Part shown: piece after piece, positions 47,060 through 57,386 of the stretch | Numbering within the stretch: position 1 is the stretch's first letter | How the letters are laid out: each line of letters starts with the position of its first letter | NCBI RefSeq assembly: GCF_045037415.1 | Contig: NZ_CP173438.1 | Strand: one strand, 5' to 3' | Origin: Escherichia coli | Lineage (GTDB): Bacteria > Pseudomonadota > Gammaproteobacteria > Enterobacterales > Enterobacteriaceae | DNA length: 64,000 nt | Translations under genes and position numbers: made by a program | Notes under the pieces: model-generated | What the model saw: only the letters and a program-made list of their open reading frames with translations | Databases searched by the model: none | What the model was told of the DNA's origin: nothing

Positions 47060-49309
47060 TTAGAAACGGAAGGTTGCGGTTGCAACGACCTGACGTTCTG
47101 CGCCCCAGAAGCAACCATAAGTGTTAAAGCAGCTGGCGACGTATTCACGATCGAACAGGTTGTTGACATGCAGCGCCACGTTGGAGCCCGCCATGCCGAC
47201 TCGCGCCAGATCATAACGCACTAACGCATCCACGACCGTATAACTTCCCACTTTAAAGGAGTTAGCCGGATCACCATAGCTGGAGCCAGTATAACGACCA
47301 CCGGTGCCCAGCGTCAGACCTGAAAGCGGACCGTCAAAGAAGGTATAGTCAGCCCACAGCGAAGCCATGTGTTTTGGCACCTGTGCAGGCGTATTTCCTT
47401 TGTAGTTGGTGTCAGTGGTGTATTCCGCGTCAGTATAGGTGTAAGAACCAACCAAGTTAACACTCGCCGACAGTGCCGCTTTCGCTTCCAGCTCTACGCC
47501 ACGCGCACGAATCTCACCGCCTTCAACCGAGAACAGTGAACCGTTCGGATCCGCCATCAGGTTATTAGTTTTGGTAAGCTGATACAGTGCGCCAGTCACC
47601 ACAATTGGGCGATCTTCTGGCACATATTTCACGCCGACTTCATACTGTTTGCCTTTCGAAGGTGCAAACAGATCGCCGTTCGCATCAGTCTGTGAAGCGG
47701 GTTCAAATGATTCACTGTAGCTGAAGTAAGGCGTTACGCCGTTGTCGAACAGGTAGTTTACACCACCACGCCAGGTGAACTCTTTGTCGTCACGTTCAGA
47801 TTTATTACCGTAATCACGGTTGAAAGATGACTGATCGGCCCAGTCATAGCGACCGCCAAGCGTAACCAGCACTTTATCCCACTGCGCCTGATCCTGAACA
47901 TACAGGCCGGTTTGTTTCTGTTTCAGCAGAACGCGGTATGGACCAGACGGATTCGGGTGAGCGCCAAAATCAAAGTCACTACGGTCTAAATTATAGATAT
48001 CAGATGGTGCAACTGAACCGGCATAACCAAACCAGGAATCGATGTCATTACGCATACGCATAAAGTCAACGCCAGTCAGCAGAGTGTGATCCACTGAACC
48101 GGTTGCGAATTTGCTTTGCAACTGAGTATCAACAGAGAAGTTTTCTAACTTCTCATTATCGATAACGTACTGACGAGTCAGTGTATGGCCCCATTGAGAC
48201 TGCGGCACGTTAGCACATGGACTCGAAGAGGGGTTTGAAGAATAGAGCGGGTCTGAGCACATGCCGTAGCCATATACGCTCTTTTGCGAGACTTTATTTT
48301 GTGCAAAGCGCAGGTTCTGACGCACAGTAAAGGTGTCGTTAAATTCGTGGTCGAAGCTATAACCAATCATCTTCTCGTTACGAGAATAGGTGTTGTTCTT
48401 CGCGCCTTCGTTAAAGTCGGTCGGCAGACGCTTACCGTTTGGCAGCGGTTCGACAGTCCCCTCTTTCGGCAACCAGCCGTAATAACCGGTTTCCGGCTCG
48501 TTCTGGAAGTAAGAAAGGAAAGTGAAATTGGTTTTATCATTCGGACGCCAGGTAAACGCTGGAGCAATAGCATAACGCTGCTCTTCAGCCCCCTTCTGCT
48601 GGGCATTCGCAGAACGCGCAAGGCCGGTCAGGCGATAAGAGTAAACGCCGTCATCATCCAGCGCATCGCTGAAGTCAAAACCAGTCTGGAATAGGCTGTC
48701 AGTCCCGGCCTTAAACTGAACTTCTTTCAACGGTTCAGTGGTCGGGCGCTTGCTGACCATGTTCAACAGGCCGCCTGGGCTGCTTTTCCCATACAGCACG
48801 GAAACCGGGCCACGCATGATTTCAGCGCGCTCCAGCATATATGGGTCAATAACCGCATCGTTATAGAAGTTGCCCTGCATCTTCAGGCCATTCAGATAGT
48901 TGTTCTGGCTTTGGCCGTCTGCCGCAAATCCGCGGATGATCAGGTAATCATAAGTATTAGATGCGCCACGGGTTCCCACAGCAACGCCAGGGGTATAGCT
49001 AAGCGCTTCTTTCACCGACTTAGGCTGATGCAGTGCCATCTCTTCAGCGGTGACGACAGAAATAGATTGAGGTACTTTTTGAATCGGCGTATCAGTTTTA
49101 GTGCCGGTAGCGGACTGTCGCGCCGCAATAGTTGCAGCTGGCCCCCATGCGCTTTCTTGCGGCGCAGGTGCAGCGGTAACGGTGATAGTGTCTTCTTTCG
49201 GTTCAACCGCTGCCTGTGCATAAACAGACATGCCGCTAACCGCTGTGGCTACTACAACTGCGATTTTACGCAGTGAGTGTTTTGGCTGAGCAGTTTTGGA
49301 ACGCGCCAT
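47060..49309 (-). CDS. fhuA: TonB-dependent ferrichrome outer-membrane receptor FhuA (receptor for phages T1/T5/phi80, colicin M, albomycin); loop variant differing from K-12
   Basis: 749-aa ORF; signal peptide, TonB box DTITVTA, C-terminal ...ATATFRF; several internal segments differ from the K-12 sequence as I recall it. Confidence 0.95.
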   Translation of the reverse strand: MARSKTAQPKHSLRKIAVVVATAVSGMSVYAQAAVEPKEDTITVTAAPAPQESAWGPAATIAARQSATGTKTDTPIQKVPQSISVVTAEEMALHQPKSVKEALSYTPGVAVGTRGASNTYDYLIIRGFAADGQSQNNYLNGLKMQGNFYNDAVIDPYMLERAEIMRGPVSVLYGKSSPGGLLNMVSKRPTTEPLKEVQFKAGTDSLFQTGFDFSDALDDDGVYSYRLTGLARSANAQQKGAEEQRYAIAPAFTWRPNDKTNFTFLSYFQNEPETGYYGWLPKEGTVEPLPNGKRLPTDFNEGAKNNTYSRNEKMIGYSFDHEFNDTFTVRQNLRFAQNKVSQKSVYGYGMCSDPLYSSNPSSSPCANVPQSQWGHTLTRQYVIDNEKLENFSVDTQLQSKFATGSVDHTLLTGVDFMRMRNDIDSWFGYAGSVAPSDIYNLDRSDFDFGAHPNPSGPYRVLLKQKQTGLYVQDQAQWDKVLVTLGGRYDWADQSSFNRDYGNKSERDDKEFTWRGGVNYLFDNGVTPYFSYSESFEPASQTDANGDLFAPSKGKQYEVGVKYVPEDRPIVVTGALYQLTKTNNLMADPNGSLFSVEGGEIRARGVELEAKAALSASVNLVGSYTYTDAEYTTDTNYKGNTPAQVPKHMASLWADYTFFDGPLSGLTLGTGGRYTGSSYGDPANSFKVGSYTVVDALVRYDLARVGMAGSNVALHVNNLFDREYVASCFNTYGCFWGAERQVVATATFRF

Positions 49310-49330
49310 TGGTATATCTCTGATGAAAGT

Positions 49331-49364
49331 GAATGATAACGTAAACGAGAATGATTATTATAAA
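49331..49364 (-). promoter_or_regulatory. Fur-box-like AT-rich dyad in the fhuA promoter region
   Basis: gaatgataacgtaaacgagaatgattattataaa contains GATAAT/ATCATT hexamers 20-55 nt upstream of the fhuA ATG. Confidence 0.55.
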
Positions 49365-49528
49365 GATGCGATAATATTCGAAACGCTGGCGGGTTCGCAA
49401 GTGATATACGCTCTGTGCGTCCATGAAGGGGCGAGAATCAATCAGATGAATCAAAAATGTTAATCTTTGCACCGTAAACCATAAAAATTCCATTACCAAA
49501 AATTAACATTTATGGCAAAGGGAAAAGC

Positions 49529-50539
49529 TTATCGGTAATACACTTCGAAGGTGGCAACAGAATTAACCCGACCACTTTTGACGCTACCCATTTTGATGTA
49601 GCGTGCTTTTAACGGAATAGTAACATTTTGATTTAACGTCGTTTTTTGAACAGGTGTATAGTCTGTATCAAATACCATCACATTGTTATTACTATCGAGG
49701 ATCTGCAGACCAACTCCTTCCGCCATTCCTGAACCAGACTCAATATTAAGAATATTATTACCCGTTACTCCAGTAGAACCTGATGAAGTAAAGCGGTAAT
49801 CAACTTTTACATCCTGAGAACATTTTTCAATCTGAATTTTAAACCGATCATCGGAAACTACAGGTGACACATTGTTAACATCAAAATCATCTGTGCCAAT
49901 ATCATTGAGTGGAACGGTAATATTTTTTTCTATAAGGTCGCATGTGCCCGGTTGAATATTGACCGGAACAGAACTAAAACGAAGCTCTCCAATAACACGA
50001 TTGTCATACTTCCAGTCAGCAACCAGTTTGCTGGTATCAATGGTCCCATTACCGACAGGTCCTGTGACAATAAACTGAATAGCTGCATGTATTGTAATCG
50101 GATAACCATATCCTTTAATCACTGTTGACGAGCCTTTATGCCAGGGCGTCATTAAATATCCGGCGGTGAGTTGCGCACTGGTGTTATTCGCCCACGCCGC
50201 GCGAAAACCGATTCCTGGCACATTAGTCTGAAACACATTGTTAAGTGGGTTATCAGTACGCATATCACCGTTTGTCAATACGGTATATCCTTGCCAGATC
50301 TCACCATTTGCCGTACAGGAAACTGAAATTGACGGACTGTTCGCATTTACTGTCGCAATAATCGTTCCAGGAACGGCATCGCTATTAACAACCAACGCAG
50401 GCACGGAGAATTGTACTGTTGCCGGATTTCCTCCATTTCCAGAAATGTTACAACCGGCGAAAACCTCAGGAATGACGCCCCAGCTAAGAAATATTATGGT
50501 CAATAATGTTCGTATATAAGAGACGAATCCTGGCTTCAT
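49529..50539 (-). CDS. fimbrial tip adhesin / minor subunit (two-domain, 336 aa) of a chaperone-usher pilus
   Basis: Signal peptide MKPGFVSYIRTLLTIIFLSWGVIPEVFA; C-terminal pilin-type ...SVATFEVYYR; last gene of operon after the usher; AT-rich. Confidence 0.8.
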   Translation of the reverse strand: MKPGFVSYIRTLLTIIFLSWGVIPEVFAGCNISGNGGNPATVQFSVPALVVNSDAVPGTIIATVNANSPSISVSCTANGEIWQGYTVLTNGDMRTDNPLNNVFQTNVPGIGFRAAWANNTSAQLTAGYLMTPWHKGSSTVIKGYGYPITIHAAIQFIVTGPVGNGTIDTSKLVADWKYDNRVIGELRFSSVPVNIQPGTCDLIEKNITVPLNDIGTDDFDVNNVSPVVSDDRFKIQIEKCSQDVKVDYRFTSSGSTGVTGNNILNIESGSGMAEGVGLQILDSNNNVMVFDTDYTPVQKTTLNQNVTIPLKARYIKMGSVKSGRVNSVATFEVYYR

Positions 50540-50560
50540 TATTTTTTCCTGTCTTATTTG

Positions 50561-53038
50561 TTATCGGCAATCCATTGTGGCTTTATAGATACCCGTGGTG
50601 TATTTTTCTGGCACTGTGACAACTCCTGTACATTGCTGGTTAATCTCTTTTCCCCACTGTACCGTAAATGTCATTGATTCTTGCACACCAGTAATATAAA
50701 CCTCCCCATCTTCACCAACAATCGCTGTACTATTCCCTAATGTCAGCAATGCCCCAAAGGGTACGCGTTCTTTATTATGGACTAATGTCAACAAGGCTCG
50801 TATTCCGCTACGTGCATCAAAATCGACACCAACAACAGCCCCTTTCGAAGGAATAACATCTTGTGTGGCATCAGAAATATCAAGACTATCGTGCCCCTGT
50901 GTATTCACAGTAATAGCGTTATGTCGATAATTCGTCATATTGGGAACAATCGCGTTTCCCCAATAATCAGTATAAACGCCTTGCGCATTTTGTACTTTTA
51001 CATTGGCACCCTCATTAATATGCACGATCGCGAATGAATCCTGCACTGATTGCCCCAATGTTACTCCATGAGCATGAGCAACCACCGCACCTTGCGCACT
51101 GTAATTCCACTGACGACTATTTTTATCATAGCTATATCCCAGACCGAATTCCCCCACTGAGCTACGATAACGTCCATTCATGCTGGCATCATAACCCACA
51201 TTATTATCAGTATAACTTTGCTGTAAATTATAACTCAGGTTGTTATCTTGCAGAGCAGTACCGCCAATTCCCAATTGATGTGATGTATTACTTTTATCGG
51301 AACGGTTTACGTTATACATCGCCCATGAATCTGGCAGCCAGCGAGAGAGAGGAATATTGAGTGTTAATGAAAATTGCTGCTCACCAGCCATTCCTGGCGT
51401 TTTCGTTAGTGTGTAATTAACAGACCAATTAATGTTACTCCAGGTCGTACTGTATCCCATTCCTATACTGCGTTCGGCCCCATGCATTCCCCAATAATCC
51501 TGTTGATAACCGTTAAGGTAGACCGAGCCCCAACGACCAATATTTTGTGAAAGATTAATTTGTAAACGATTACGCCGATTATTTGTCTGTCGATAACTGT
51601 AAATACCCTTGTCATCAGGTGTATCACGTTGATCAAGTGCTTCCTGGAAAGTGTAAAATTGTGATGTAGAATAACGATAACTTGCCAGAGTTACTGTCGT
51701 ATCAGTGTCTGGAAAATCTTTCGCATACTGTGCACGCCATGACAGTCCTGTAGCATCATCACGCCCATCATCAAACTTCGTTTCTGCTGCGGTGATATCA
51801 ACAGATACCGACCCCAGACGGCCTAAATCAGCGCCAATCCCTGTCACACCAGAATGATAAATTGAGGCACCAAGTATGCCGCCATAAATCGTTATTCCAT
51901 AGGGCAAGCCATATATCGCGGTTGCAACACCAAAAACAGGTGTCTCAGCATGATTATCGTTGTCACGGTATTTTCCAGTTGCAAGACTATATTTTAATGC
52001 GCCTTCTCGCTGTAGAATTGGAACCGTTGAACTGGCCTGAATAAAACTGTGTTCTTGCCCGTTGGTTTCTTTGATGGTGACTTCCAGATCGGCCCCCGCC
52101 GTTACCTGGCTTAAGTCTTTAATTTCAAATGGCCCTGCCGATACCCACGTTTGGTAAATAACATAGCCGTTTTGTTTAATCACAACTTGTGCATCGCTGT
52201 TGGCAATACCACGAACCACTGGCGCAAAGCCTTGTTCGCTGTCAGGCAGCATACTGGTGTCCGTTTCAAGCTTTATACCTGTCATCTGCACACTGTCAAA
52301 AAGATCGCCATTTGTGAACGTCTGCCCGACTTCCATCTGGCTTCTTAATGCTTTGATATCGCGTTGCAAACTGGTGCTGATCGACTCCCAACTGGAGTCA
52401 CTGTAAACGGTATTATTTCGTAGCCGCCATACGCCTAAATTAATCCCTGAATTTAAATTCAACCAATTTGAATTCAGGTTATCGCCATCACTGTTTTGCC
52501 GGGAACCACTGGCGTAATAACTTAACCAAACCGCACTCTCACCATCACTCCAGTATTTCGGTGAAATACTCCCTGCGGCCCGCGCATTCTGATAGATTTG
52601 CGGGATCCGCAGACACAGCGTTTGGCTGTCTAACTGGAAATCATAACGTGCGCCATCAATAATCTGAGCAATATCACCAAACTCAGTGTCATCATCCATT
52701 ACTTGTAACGCGGGAATGTCGTCAACTTTAAGACCGAACTCACGGAGATCCGCCTTTGTAAAACGAGGGATGAGCCTTTTTTTATCCGAAGACAGAATGA
52801 AGGTAATATTTCTCTTATCAAGATACTCTTGCCCCCACATAACAGAGGTAAGATATACTCCCGGAGTTAAGTTATTATTATTAACAAAATCCTCCAGCAC
52901 TTGTGTATTTTCAAGTGGGCTATCCAGCTCCAGGATACGAAGGTTAAATTCATCTCGTGCATAGCTCAATGAATACACTGCCGATAATGCAAATGTTATC
53001 CCAGTTAAGACAAATGTGCGATGCAATGGTAGCAGCAT
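50561..53038 (-). CDS. fimbrial outer-membrane usher (FimD/PapC family)
   Basis: 825-aa ORF with signal peptide and usher-like size and composition; lies between chaperone and adhesin genes. Confidence 0.9.
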   Translation of the reverse strand: MLLPLHRTFVLTGITFALSAVYSLSYARDEFNLRILELDSPLENTQVLEDFVNNNNLTPGVYLTSVMWGQEYLDKRNITFILSSDKKRLIPRFTKADLREFGLKVDDIPALQVMDDDTEFGDIAQIIDGARYDFQLDSQTLCLRIPQIYQNARAAGSISPKYWSDGESAVWLSYYASGSRQNSDGDNLNSNWLNLNSGINLGVWRLRNNTVYSDSSWESISTSLQRDIKALRSQMEVGQTFTNGDLFDSVQMTGIKLETDTSMLPDSEQGFAPVVRGIANSDAQVVIKQNGYVIYQTWVSAGPFEIKDLSQVTAGADLEVTIKETNGQEHSFIQASSTVPILQREGALKYSLATGKYRDNDNHAETPVFGVATAIYGLPYGITIYGGILGASIYHSGVTGIGADLGRLGSVSVDITAAETKFDDGRDDATGLSWRAQYAKDFPDTDTTVTLASYRYSTSQFYTFQEALDQRDTPDDKGIYSYRQTNNRRNRLQINLSQNIGRWGSVYLNGYQQDYWGMHGAERSIGMGYSTTWSNINWSVNYTLTKTPGMAGEQQFSLTLNIPLSRWLPDSWAMYNVNRSDKSNTSHQLGIGGTALQDNNLSYNLQQSYTDNNVGYDASMNGRYRSSVGEFGLGYSYDKNSRQWNYSAQGAVVAHAHGVTLGQSVQDSFAIVHINEGANVKVQNAQGVYTDYWGNAIVPNMTNYRHNAITVNTQGHDSLDISDATQDVIPSKGAVVGVDFDARSGIRALLTLVHNKERVPFGALLTLGNSTAIVGEDGEVYITGVQESMTFTVQWGKEINQQCTGVVTVPEKYTTGIYKATMDCR

Positions 53039-53104
53039 AAATTCCCTTGCGCCCGTAATATTATAAATACAGATCGGTTATTTATAGTAATACACTTCGG
53101 TGAT

Positions 53105-53821
53105 TTATAACTTTTGTTGTCGTTTCCCAGAACTTGAACCGTAGTCAGTTATCACCGACCATTCAACAATACTTCCCGCTCCGACAGGAAGACTAAACCG
53201 CTGCTCAGAAAATGGTCCTACCATCATCAATAATGCGCCAGGTTCAGATTTGCTCTCGGTGGGAACAATATTTTTTCCCGATACTGTCAGATCACTGAAT
53301 GAAATATAAAAAGGCGTTGGATTTTTTACTATGAGCTTCCCCGCTTCTTTATGGAACTTAAGTTTTTCCCATGCAGTGAGAGCATCACTATTATCCAAAG
53401 AAGCTGGCCGCCAAAATAATTTAAGCCGGGCTTTCATTGCAAATTGCAAGGTATTTCTATCTTTTAGTTCTTCTGGCATCGCAGAAACAGATTTTATGTT
53501 TGCCAGAAACAAACTTTCCCTATCCTGAGGAAGTTTGTTTTTATCACCTGTAAATACAATATGGAGTAATGTTTGCCGATTTTCTTCAAGTTTATAAACT
53601 GGAGGCGTAATGAGAAAGGGGGCTTTAGAGCCATCAATATTACTCACCCAGCTTTGCACCAAATAGCGTGCATATGCATCTTTATTTTTTAATGTGATTT
53701 GAACTTCATTTTGATTTGAAGGATAGATAATACGTGTACCGCCAAGAACAATACTTGCCTGAACTTGCAATGCCGTAAGAAGAAACGTAAAACCTAAACA
53801 AACTCGAGAAAAAACTGACAT
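53105..53821 (-). CDS. periplasmic fimbrial chaperone (PapD/FimC family)
   Basis: ORF track 53105..53854 begins at TTG; ATG at 53821 gives MSVFSRVCLGFTFLLTALQVQA signal peptide; ~238 aa. Confidence 0.85.
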   Translation of the reverse strand: MSVFSRVCLGFTFLLTALQVQASIVLGGTRIIYPSNQNEVQITLKNKDAYARYLVQSWVSNIDGSKAPFLITPPVYKLEENRQTLLHIVFTGDKNKLPQDRESLFLANIKSVSAMPEELKDRNTLQFAMKARLKLFWRPASLDNSDALTAWEKLKFHKEAGKLIVKNPTPFYISFSDLTVSGKNIVPTESKSEPGALLMMVGPFSEQRFSLPVGAGSIVEWSVITDYGSSSGKRQQKL

Positions 53822-53866
53822 AAATAACCCTCCGTGGTCAAACAGTCCTTTCAAACACTATGAATA

Positions 53867-54433
53867 TTAGCGATAAAATACTTCGAACGTCGCAGATGAG
53901 GCATACTTACCCGCAGTCGGCGCGTTATTACCAACCTGAATAACATTGGCGGTGTAATTGAATATTGTTGGAGTAATGCTCCCGGCATTATCAACATCAG
54001 TGGATGCATCGGGAACTGAACCATCAAATTTCACATCGTTAGCACCGCCATTTTTATTTGTCACCGTAATACCCACATTTGTTGCACTGCCAGCCCCAGC
54101 TTCGCTATTTTCCAGACGCAGGAAACCTGCATCCGTTGTCGTTCCAGAAAATGTCAGGTTTAGTTTGTCCACCAACGGATCGCATTTTATTAATTCAATT
54201 TTAAAATCTTTTGACGTTCCAATACTACCGTCTCCAGAATAGTCCGCTGGGTAAGTATCTGCAAAAGTGACTGTCCCTGTTGTACTGGCAGACTCGTTTA
54301 CATTAATTTCGCAAGTATCGGCAACAATTTTACCGTTAAAGTTAACCACTCCGGTATCTGTAGCAAATACACTGGTACTTACTACAGCGATGAGACTTCC
54401 TGACACTAACAGAGAAAGCAATTTTTTATTCAT
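53867..54433 (-). CDS. major fimbrial subunit (type-1-like pilin)
   Basis: 188 aa; signal peptide MNKKLLSLLVSGSLIAVVSTSVFA; Cys pair (ADTC...IKCD); C-terminal ...SSATFEVFYR; first gene of operon. Confidence 0.85.
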   Translation of the reverse strand: MNKKLLSLLVSGSLIAVVSTSVFATDTGVVNFNGKIVADTCEINVNESASTTGTVTFADTYPADYSGDGSIGTSKDFKIELIKCDPLVDKLNLTFSGTTTDAGFLRLENSEAGAGSATNVGITVTNKNGGANDVKFDGSVPDASTDVDNAGSITPTIFNYTANVIQVGNNAPTAGKYASSATFEVFYR

Positions 54434-54734
54434 AAAAATCCCTTAATTATGAGGTAATACACATGATTCCATTCCAGAGCGACTGGTCAGGGCTTGATAA
54501 ATATTGATATTAGAAATATATCCACCAAATAATATTATTTTTAGATTAGAACAAAAAACACATAGCCTGTCTATACAAACTGCAGTAATAAAACAATAAC
54601 CACATGAATTTTAAAGTGTTGTTTTTATTTTAAGAGTTTAAGGTAATAAAATATAACATAAACCCAAAATATATATTAATGGTCGTATATTCATTAAATA
54701 AATATTTATTTGGTTTATCTAAATGATTTCATTA
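54434..54734 (-). promoter_or_regulatory. AT-rich upstream region of the fimbrial operon (candidate promoter; possible nucleoid-protein silencing target)
   Basis: ~300 nt, visibly AT-rich, immediately 5' of the major pilin gene; no ORF. Confidence 0.4.
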
Positions 54735-54758
54735 CGCTCTCCGCATAAGCGGAGAGCG
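54735..54758 (-). terminator. terminator-like hairpin immediately after mrcB
   Basis: cgctctccgc ataa gcggagagcg perfect 10-bp stem 10 nt past the mrcB stop; downstream flank is A/T-rich but without a clean U-run. Confidence 0.55.
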
Positions 54759-54767
54759 ATTACGATA

Positions 54768-57293
54768 TTAATTACTACCAAACATCTCCTTGATCCAGCC
54801 AGCCACGCCGTCGCTGTCTTTTTGCTCCTGTTGAGCAGGTTGCTGTTGCTGCGGCTGAGAAGACTGATCAAACGGATTGCCTGACGGTTGCTGCTGCATC
54901 TCACTCTGCTGGCACAGCGATTGCGGATCGCTGGTCCAGACTGGCAAGACACGCATACCACCGCTGCAAACAAAGTTGCCGTCGTAGTCCACGCCCATAT
55001 CTGCAATATCTTCCGGCGGAACAAGATTCAGCGGTGTTGGCGTCTGGTTAGCCAGATAACGCTGATAAATCGACATTGCCCCGCTGGCACCATACAGTTT
55101 GGTCGGCTGGTTGTTATCACGGCCGACCCAGGTGATGGTCACCGTGCTCCCATCAATGCCCGCAAACCAGGTATCTACGTTATTGTTGGTAGTCCCTGTT
55201 TTCCCTGCCAGATGCAGGTTCGGGTATTTTGCCCCAAGCTGACGTCCCGTACCGCGTTGTACAACCTGCTGCATGGTCCATAGTGTCAGATACGCCGCCT
55301 GCGCCGGAACAGCGCGTTCTGCCTGCGGGAAGCTCTGATACAACACCTTGCCGTCTTCTGCGATGACTGAACGTAGCGCGGAAAGCGGAGCACGATTACC
55401 ACCGCTGGCGATAGTCTGGAAGGCCTGCGCCACTTCGATTGGCGTTAAGTTCAACGCCCCCAACAACATTGCTGGAACTGGATTCAGTTGATCTTTCGGC
55501 ACACCCAGTTTGATCCAGGTATCCGTAACCGCAGGCAGCCCCAACGCCATGCCCAGATTCACCGTTGGCACGTTCATCGAACGGGTCAACGCATCTACCA
55601 GCATCACCCTGCCACTTTCGCTATAACGACGATCATCGTTCTGCGGTGACCAGACCTGGCCATTCGGCTGACGCAGCGCGATTGGCGCATCGGCAATCCA
55701 CGTATTCAAACGATAGATTTTCGGCTGGCTTAAGGCCGTTAGATAAGTCGCTGGTTTTGCAAGGGAACCAATCGAACGACGCGCCTGCATCGCACGGTTG
55801 TAGCCCGCAAACTGCGGCTCAGAGCCACCGACCATCGCACGAACTTCACCGCTAAAGCGGTCAACAACCACAATCGCGGTTTCAAGATCGCTCAACTTAC
55901 GCTGTTTCTTCAGTGCCGGAATGCCTTCCACGGCGGCTTTTTCTGCCGCGTCCTGGGCCACCGAGTCAAAGGTAGTGAAGATCTTCACGCCGGAGAGATC
56001 TTTTACCTTATCGCCTAATTTCGCCTGCAGCTCCTGACGCACCAGCTGCATAAAGGCTGGCTGAGGAGAGATCACCCCACCGCGCGGCTGAACACCCAGC
56101 GGACGTGCACTCAACATGTCATAGAGTTCTTGATCAATAATTTGTTGCTGTTGCAGCAAACGTAGTACCAGGTTACGTCGCTCCAGCGCCAGTTTCGGGT
56201 TACGCCACGGGTTGTAGATGGACGCCCCTTTCACCATACCCACCAACAGCGCCTGCTGATCGAGGCTCAATTCTTCTACCGGGCGACCAAAGTAATACAA
56301 GCTCGCCAGCGGGAAGCCGCGGATTTCGTTGTCGCCGCTCTGACCGAGATACACCTCGTTCATATACAGCTCAAGAATACGGTCTTTGCTGTAACGCGCG
56401 TCCATGATCAGCGCCATGTAGGCTTCGTTCGCTTTACGCCAGTAAGAACGCTCGCTGGAGAGAAACAGGTTTTTAACCAACTGTTGCGTCAGCGTACTCG
56501 CCCCCTGCACCGTGCGTCCGGCAGTCAGGTTTGCCAGCACCGCACGTCCGATTGAGTAGAGACTGATCCCATCATGCTCGTAGAAATGACGGTCTTCTGT
56601 CGCCAGCAAAGTATCCACCAGCAAATCCGGGAAACCACTGCGCGGCACAAACAGACGCTGCTCACCGTTTGGCGAAGAGATCATGGTGATCAGGCGCGGA
56701 TCAAGACGGAAGAAACCGAACTGACGGTTGTTCTCCATATTGACTATCGTCGCCAGATGATCGCCATCAAAGGTCAGACGCGCGCGCACCTGCCCTTCTT
56801 TGCTGTCCGGGAAATCAAACGGACGGCGGATCATCTCAATGCTGTTGGCCTGTACGGTAAACTCACCAGGACGGGTCATTTTCGACACCTGGCGATACTG
56901 GGTCGCCTCCAGCAGCTTCACCATCTCGTTCTTGCTGATGGTCATGTCTGGCTCAAGGTTGACCATTCGACCATAAACTGCCGCGGGCAATTGCCAGACC
57001 TTGCCATCAATACGGCTGCGAATTTTTTGATCGAGATAAACGCCGTAAATGGCGATCAGCACGGCAAAAACGATAGCCAGTTTTAGCAGCAGCCATAGCC
57101 AGCCGCGTTTGCCACGAGGCTTACGCCCTTTGCCTTTGCCCTTACCTTTGCGCGGCATCGGTTCTTCATCCTCATAGTCATCATAATCGTCGTAATCATC
57201 GTCATCTTCGTAACGACGACGGCTTACCTTTTGTTTGACCGGACGCGTCGGTTTCCCTTTGCGTCCAATTGGCTCGCGGTCATTCCCGGCCAT
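54768..57293 (-). CDS. mrcB: penicillin-binding protein 1B (bifunctional glycosyltransferase/transpeptidase)
   Basis: ORF track 54768..57308; ATG at 57293 gives [22 protein letters not shown]...; 841 aa here versus 844 recalled for K-12 (shorter C-terminal Q/P repeat). Confidence 0.95.
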
Positions 57294-57386
57294 GCTTTTT
57301 CTCCGCAATATTCAGGCGCAAAAGCCCGATTTTCTGTTCTTCTGTTGCAAGACAGAAGAAGATATCTCTCAAATTTGCTTTGGTCT

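Follow-up and report, generated by a model that had tools for sequence, protein, structure and literature searches.

A Chaperone-Usher Fimbrial Operon between mrcB and fhuA of Escherichia coli Is Very Probably the Described Ush (ECSF_0165-Type) Operon

A four-gene chaperone-usher fimbrial operon occupies the whole gap between mrcB and fhuA in a 64,000-nucleotide stretch of Escherichia coli DNA (assembly GCF_045037415.1, contig NZ_CP173438.1), the full length of which is referred to here as the window. The four genes are co-directional on the minus strand and all are present at full length, as had been described in an earlier reading made without database searches (the sequence-only reading). 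They are named here ushA to ushD, after the operon to which they very probably correspond. The interval and its flanks contain the following features.

47060-49309, minus strand: fhuA, a flank of the block
49310..49464, minus strand: fhuA upstream region, common with K-12 in the blastn alignment
49452..49514, minus strand: AT-rich inverted repeat with 18-nt arms and a 27-nt spacer, at the junction with fhuA, directly 3' of the ushD stop
49529..50539, minus strand: ushD, two-domain tip adhesin, 336 amino acids (aa)
50561..53038, minus strand: ushC, outer-membrane usher, 825 aa, corresponding to ECSF_0165
53105..53821, minus strand: ushB, periplasmic PapD/FimC-like chaperone, 238 aa from the ATG
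53867..54433, minus strand: ushA, major pilin, 188 aa
54434..54767, minus strand: mrcB-ushA intergenic region, 334 bp, 27% G+C
54735..54758, minus strand: hairpin with a G+C-rich 10-bp stem, directly after the mrcB stop
54768-57308: mrcB, the other flank of the block

The gaps between the ush genes are 45, 66, and 21 nt. RefSeq starts ushB at the ATG, and an in-frame TTG upstream at 53854 gives a product of 249 aa. The N termini of all four Ush proteins are signal-peptide-like, and the C-terminal residues of the pilin-type proteins are ATFEVFYR in UshA and ATFEVYYR in UshD; both features had been pointed out in the sequence-only reading and are present in the sequence.

Complete Pfam domain sets were found in all four products and bear out their assignment as pilin, chaperone, usher, and adhesin. 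UshA matches the Fimbrial family (PF00419; E = 7e-19), contains cysteines at residues 41 and 84, and has an N-terminal donor-strand-like segment, GVVNFNGKIV. UshB contains PapD_N (E = 1e-33) and PapD_C (E = 1e-14) and matches FimC in the PDB with an E value of 2e-42, and the arginine of GxTRxIYP, the LPQDRESLF motif, and the lysine of RxKLxxRP are all aligned (GGTRIIYP against GATRVIYP and RLKLFWRP against RIKLYYRP). In PapD and FimC, the conserved arginine and lysine anchor the C terminus of the subunit. UshC (RefSeq WP_000926360.1) contains PapC_N (E = 1e-26), an Usher domain that covers positions 2 to 549 of the 549-position model (E = 8.5e-180), and PapC_C (E = 8e-14). UshD has a receptor-binding domain at approximately residues 29 to 196 and a pilin domain at approximately residues 197 to 336, without an N-terminal donor strand; the Pfam Fimbrial match lies at residues 196 to 335, and a weak match to the MrkD-like receptor-binding domain lies at residues 45 to 122. 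The pilin domain resembles FimA structures, and the receptor-binding domain, in a confident structural model, appears nearest to adhesins of the Abp1D/MrkD/CupB6 type and not to lectins of the FimH/F17 type. The block thus combines the three-domain usher, the two-domain PapD-like chaperone, and the incomplete-immunoglobulin-fold pilin subunits of a classical chaperone-usher system.

The block has a G+C content of 0.410 over positions 49465 to 54763, ranging from 0.28 to 0.48 in 400-nt segments, against approximately 55% in the flanks, and is the sole sustained G+C trough in the window. The G+C content at third codon positions (GC3) is 0.29 to 0.37 in the ush genes versus 0.58 to 0.61 in mrcB and hrpB, and codon usage is atypical, with ATA, CGA, CGG, and TTA enriched. 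The trough described in the sequence-only reading is therefore real, although the value of about 60% G+C given there for mrcB was too high, the measured value being 54.6%. That reading also held that no integrase, insertion sequence (IS), tRNA, or dedicated regulator accompanies the genes, and we agree: no integrase, IS element, or regulator was found among the open reading frames (ORFs) of the block, and no tRNA was found in a search of the window. A repeat search returned no direct repeats flanking the block. A mobile genomic island was therefore rejected as a candidate, there being no integrase or transposase, tRNA, or flanking direct repeat.

The sequence-only reading had left the pilus type unassigned. 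It is catalogued, as ECSF_0165 or ushABCD, and the same four genes are present at the same junction in SE15, EC958, JJ1886, and E2348/69. The block is very probably an intact copy of the sequence type 131 (ST131) allele of this already described operon of the gamma* usher clade. In nucleotides, the operon interior shows 100% identity with those of the ST131 references JJ1886 and EC958 and of the commensal SE15 (over 4,905 nt in the last). UshA is identical to WP_001035606.1 of SE15 and of ST131 strain 81009 and corresponds to ECSF_0163, as UshB does to ECSF_0164; both of those strains carry the four genes in the mrcB-fhuA interval, and the RefSeq accessions of the pilin, usher, and adhesin are equal in the two. 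Of 5,426 complete E. coli genomes searched by megablast with the operon interior, 574 (approximately 10.6%) carry it, in every case on the chromosome. Most of these carriers (566) have it at an identity of at least 99%, five have the E2348/69 allele, and three have a third allele at 80 to 90% identity. The label "ST131" is used here on the basis of named reference strains and the literature.

Published work already covers the operon and its clade, its occurrence in ST131 and enteropathogenic E. coli (EPEC), and the genes that flank it. Wurpel 2013 (PMC3559732) lists ECSF_0165 as a sporadic chromosomal type of the gamma* usher clade, beside Lpf, Lpf-like, Yra, and ECSF_4008, and the ECSF_0165 row of its table for 36 genomes shows SE15. 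The Yad usher of SE15 is ECSF_0152 in that table, and the usher described here lies 13 genes further, which makes it ECSF_0165. The operon was named ushA-ushB-ushC-ushD by Stubenrauch 2017 (PMC5717340), who found it in ST131 as well as in the EPEC lineage to which E2348/69 belongs. According to the supplement of that paper, ECSF_0163 to ECSF_0166 are flanked by the penicillin-binding protein ECSF_0162 and the TonB-dependent receptor ECSF_0167, and the same flanks occur in E2348/69, Escherichia albertii KF1, and Enterobacter asburiae LF7a. It was also reported there that, in E. coli BL21, the EPEC allele of UshC is assembled into the outer membrane in a manner dependent on, or accelerated by, the translocation and assembly module (TAM) and that Ush and YraJ are mutually exclusive across E. 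coli lineages. Among 19 uropathogenic E. coli strains, Ren 2016 (PMC4850163) found ECSF_0165 limited to the EC958/NA114 group, making Ush one of the few fimbrial operons that separate ST131 from other uropathogenic lineages. Full-text literature combining chaperone-usher fimbriae with mrcB and fhuA yielded nothing relevant; the locus tag did.

Among multidrug-resistant extraintestinal E. coli, ST131 is the dominant clone. As a finding from a genome scan, the block is nothing categorically new; the present analysis makes modest additions, namely, the breadth of synteny across genera, the exact junctions, the divergence of the alleles set against the identity of the flanks, and the structural classification of UshD.

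Assembly of the pilus may be proposed by analogy with the family. UshA and UshD would be exported by Sec, captured in the periplasm by the FimC-like UshB via donor-strand complementation, and handed by UshB to the usher UshC. UshD would enter UshC first and become the tip, because it has no donor strand of its own and begins directly with the receptor-binding domain. UshA would then polymerize beneath UshD by donor-strand exchange through its GVVNFNGKIV segment, and, as there are only two structural genes, the fiber would consist simply of a rod and its tip.

Host matrix proteins, collagen and fibrinogen among them, are the ligands of MrkD and the Abp adhesins. The modeled fold of UshD makes a host protein of the extracellular-matrix kind a somewhat more likely ligand than a sugar bound in a FimH- or F17-like pocket. 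Alternatively, UshD could be a lectin like FimH, F17G, or UclD that binds glycans, in which case the pilus would be directed at a sugar receptor of the mucosa. Lectins are common among gamma-clade tip adhesins, and the Foldseek matches of the whole UshD chain include FimH, FocH, and LpfD, yet the fold ranking of the receptor-binding domain disfavors this alternative, which we consider possible but rather unlikely. With its MrkD/Abp-like binding domain, UshD is a reasonable target for work on adhesion and colonization.

The 334-bp leader presumably holds the ush promoter and the 5' untranslated region (UTR), and it is a likely target of H-NS. In an alignment of the ST131, EPEC, and SCPM alleles, the approximately 200 bp nearest to the ushA ATG are conserved within Escherichia. 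No GATC site, sought as a mark of Dam/Lrp-type control, is present in the leader, and scans for consensus promoters and terminators upstream of ushA gave results at the level of shuffled sequence. A search for a phase-variation switch upstream of ushA found only weak AT-rich inverted repeats that are probably due to chance, and no recombinase. The ushA-ushB spacer has no significant hairpin (z = -0.2). Because the leader has 27% and the operon body 41% G+C, and because there is no dedicated regulator, the default state under laboratory conditions would most likely be silencing by H-NS.

The junctions were defined against K-12 MG1655, in which the mrcB-fhuA spacer is 219 bp, in line with the approximately 220 bp given in the sequence-only reading. 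Homology to K-12 stops at position 54764, 4 nt beyond the mrcB stop, and in blastn alignments returns weakly at 49464 and strongly from approximately 49404 to the fhuA ATG, which places the fhuA promoter outside the islet. About 5.3 kb in the window thus stands in place of 59 to 119 bp of the K-12 spacer; the block replaces rather than interrupts that spacer, and the fhuA promoter region is kept. The hairpin at 54735 to 54758 (-22.9 kcal/mol; z = -6.3; matched by none of 200 shuffles) is probably the mrcB terminator. It reads CGCTCTCCGC-TTAT-GCGGAGAGCG in ush-bearing strains versus ACCGGATGGC...GCCATCCGGT at L003:3275-3310 in K-12, a difference which argues that the mrcB terminator was swapped together with the islet; the EPEC allele shares the hairpin found in the window. 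At the other junction, the inverted repeat at 49452 to 49514 folds weakly (-17 kcal/mol; z = -1.4; matched by 20 of 200 shuffles) and may be an operon-end hairpin. Within mrcB itself, the window shows a length polymorphism relative to K-12 and EPEC in an acidic D/Y/E repeat near the N terminus, where the first 150 nt are approximately 90% identical and gapped, and a second length difference, a 9-nt deletion that falls in the Gln-rich tail at the C terminus.

A cross-genus scan, in which a single genome of each bacterial species was searched with the UshD alignment and all neighbors were then used in tblastn, revealed the order mrcB, ushA, ushB, ushC, ushD, fhuA, fhuC in five species of Citrobacter, at least six of Enterobacter, Lelliottia, Huaxiibacter, and a metagenome-assembled genome of Pluralibacter. 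Operons of the same type also lie between mrcB and fhuA in some Salmonella enterica genomes, and one is found on a metagenome contig (L005) whose mrcB is only approximately 85% identical to that of E. coli. Distant relatives in Chimaeribacter and Atlantibacter are without mrcB or fhuA flanks. Across the syntenic loci, identity is 59 to 71% for UshC and 56 to 68% for UshB, while UshA falls into two classes (approximately 42% or 61 to 69%), as does UshD (53 to 74% or 38 to 45%). The identity classes of UshA, UshD, and FhuA combine differently among loci L008 to L027, which suggests module shuffling within the mrcB-fhuA interval. The G+C content of the syntenic operons is 0.53 to 0.56 in Enterobacter and Lelliottia, near that of the host, 0.56 in Huaxiibacter, 0.46 to 0.49 in Citrobacter, and 0.41 in E. 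coli.

The mrcB-fhuA position is therefore an old enterobacterial fimbrial locus with patchy carriage in E. coli, because the same operon type occupies it in at least seven genera and the window has no mobility signature. Within E. coli, the ST131 and E2348/69 alleles, both of phylogroup B2, are 88.0% (ushA), 89.4% (ushB), 95.0% (ushC), and 94.8% (ushD) identical amid flanks that are 99.0% (mrcB) and 98.6% (hrpB) identical, a pattern indicative of allelic exchange at a preexisting locus. The UshA proteins of the two are 90.5% identical, so that much of the nucleotide difference is synonymous and therefore old. Exchange of ush alleles by homologous recombination through the conserved flanks, rather than insertion of a mobile element, is most likely, and an old locus with such exchange reconciles the "remnant of an ancient cluster" of Wurpel with the "lateral transfer" of Stubenrauch.

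The sequence-only reading had instead proposed a lineage-specific insertion of about 5.2 kb, which may be pictured as a recent, horizontally acquired islet that a mobile element brought into the spacer between mrcB and fhuA in an ancestor of phylogroup B2. The extra segment relative to K-12 is real; its lineage specificity needs qualification. The low G+C and GC3, the atypical codon usage, and the patchy distribution over the complete genomes would all fit a recent arrival, and lateral transfer has likewise been argued by Stubenrauch 2017 (PMC5717340). Moreover, fragments of IS4-family transposases lie between mrcB and ushA in Salmonella enterica (L087:711-1636) and in the metagenome contig (L005:1399-1839), and these are absent from the E. 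coli versions. Apart from secondary IS1 or IS903B matches inside the operon of a few ST131 genomes, they are the sole traces of mobility. A 146-aa ORF beside the L005 operon was considered as a lost regulator and turned out to be such an IS4 transposase fragment. A recent insertion is nevertheless unlikely, given that exactly the same position is occupied in at least seven genera, that neither integrase nor tRNA, IS element, or flanking direct repeats accompany the block in the window, that the K-12 spacer is replaced with the fhuA promoter region retained, and that two B2 lineages with nearly identical flanks carry alleles 5 to 12% apart.

Several observations weigh against the interpretation favored here. 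The E. coli ush alleles, at 41% G+C, are far more AT-rich than the syntenic Enterobacter and Lelliottia operons at 53 to 56%, and simple vertical descent is thus not the explanation. Some carriers are broken: ushB is annotated as frameshifted in E2348/69 (L004:13926-14643), and IS1 or IS903B lies within the operon in several ST131-type genomes, so that selection to keep ush may be weak. The name UshC, searched together with fimbriae and ST131 in full-text literature from 2017 on, occurs in Stubenrauch 2017 only. The suggested ligand class draws on fold similarity at 15 to 17% identity, and binding pockets vary across the fold family; H-NS silencing, in turn, is predicted from base composition only.

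The broken copies would also agree with a cryptic, decaying relic, the genes being intact by chance in a young clone, never expressed, and contributing nothing to fitness. The operon has no regulator and an extremely AT-rich leader, and the conservation among the 566 genomes is uninformative if they represent one young clone. What speaks for the maintenance of ush instead is that the window retains four full-length ORFs whose signal peptides are intact and whose functional motifs are conserved and that intact orthologous operons persist in long-diverged genera, which points to purifying selection having acted on the whole system over the long term. A relic is, in our judgment, also an unlikely explanation.

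The neighboring fhuA is itself deeply divergent. Nucleotide identity to K-12 is approximately 86 to 87%, falling to 62 to 66% over nt 1051 to 1350, compared with 95.8% for mrcB, and the fhuA of the window is only 68 to 71% identical to that of E2348/69 despite the approximately 99% identity of the mrcB and hrpB flanks. At the protein level, FhuA is 89.9% identical to that of K-12, 90.5 to 91.7% to those of Citrobacter, and 89.7 to 90.0% to those of the Salmonella-like loci, so that the K-12 protein is no nearer to it than these others. Among E. coli genomes, fhuA identity to the window is at least 99% in 566, 95 to 99% in 314, 90 to 95% in 286, 80 to 90% in 3,695, and 60 to 80% in 563; the first count equals that of the ST131-type ush allele.

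A more far-reaching reading, which we regard as improbable, would make mrcB-fhuA an ancient hypervariable surface-antigen cassette across the Enterobacteriaceae, in which deeply divergent UshA, UshD, and FhuA classes are variously combined from species to species and of which the ST131 haplotype (ST131-type ush plus a private fhuA) would encode a matrix-protein-binding pilus of the MrkD/Abp type. If this were true, such a pilus could aid the success of the clone, for example, on catheters or damaged epithelium.

Elsewhere in the window, two RNA elements scored above the Rfam gathering score: the small RNA t44 (27816-27902, minus strand; 83.5 bits) and the HtrA/degP 5' UTR thermometer (36020-36065, minus strand; 77 bits), the latter just upstream of a 474-aa ORF at 34601-36025.

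The receptor-binding domains of MrkD of Klebsiella type 3 fimbriae and of Abp1D and Abp2D of Acinetobacter are 15 to 17% identical to that of UshD; the likeness is one of fold, and these adhesins belong to another usher clade than Ush, gamma4 in the case of type 3 fimbriae. Ucl/F17-like fimbriae were rejected as an assignment, no lectin domain homologous to UclD or F17G being found in the adhesin. Lpf/Stg fimbriae (LpfABCDE) share the gamma* grouping with Ush, and the best NCBIfam matches are LpfA for UshA and LpfC for UshC, with LpfB second for UshB. However, the scores lie below the equivalog cutoffs (LpfC, 679.5 versus 1271 bits; LpfB, 151.8 versus 360 bits; LpfA, 38.2 versus 221 bits), and identity with Stg/Lpf was rejected.

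The nearest K-12 paralogue is Yra (yraHIJK), which has the same gene order of pilin, chaperone, usher, and adhesin and likewise belongs to the gamma* clade. Orthology is ruled out, in that UshC and YraJ are 40% and UshB and YraI 34% identical, neither UshA and YraH nor UshD and YraK have a BLASTP match at an E value of 1e-3 or below, and Yra lies between agaI and rsmI, unlike Ush. Closer still is the operon of E2348/69, the source of the biochemically studied usher, which is 88 to 95% identical in nucleotides to that of the window and differs in its frameshifted chaperone gene. From the Ush operons of SE15, EC958, and JJ1886, that of the window shows no difference of substance: it is the same operon between the same mrcB and fhuA flanks.

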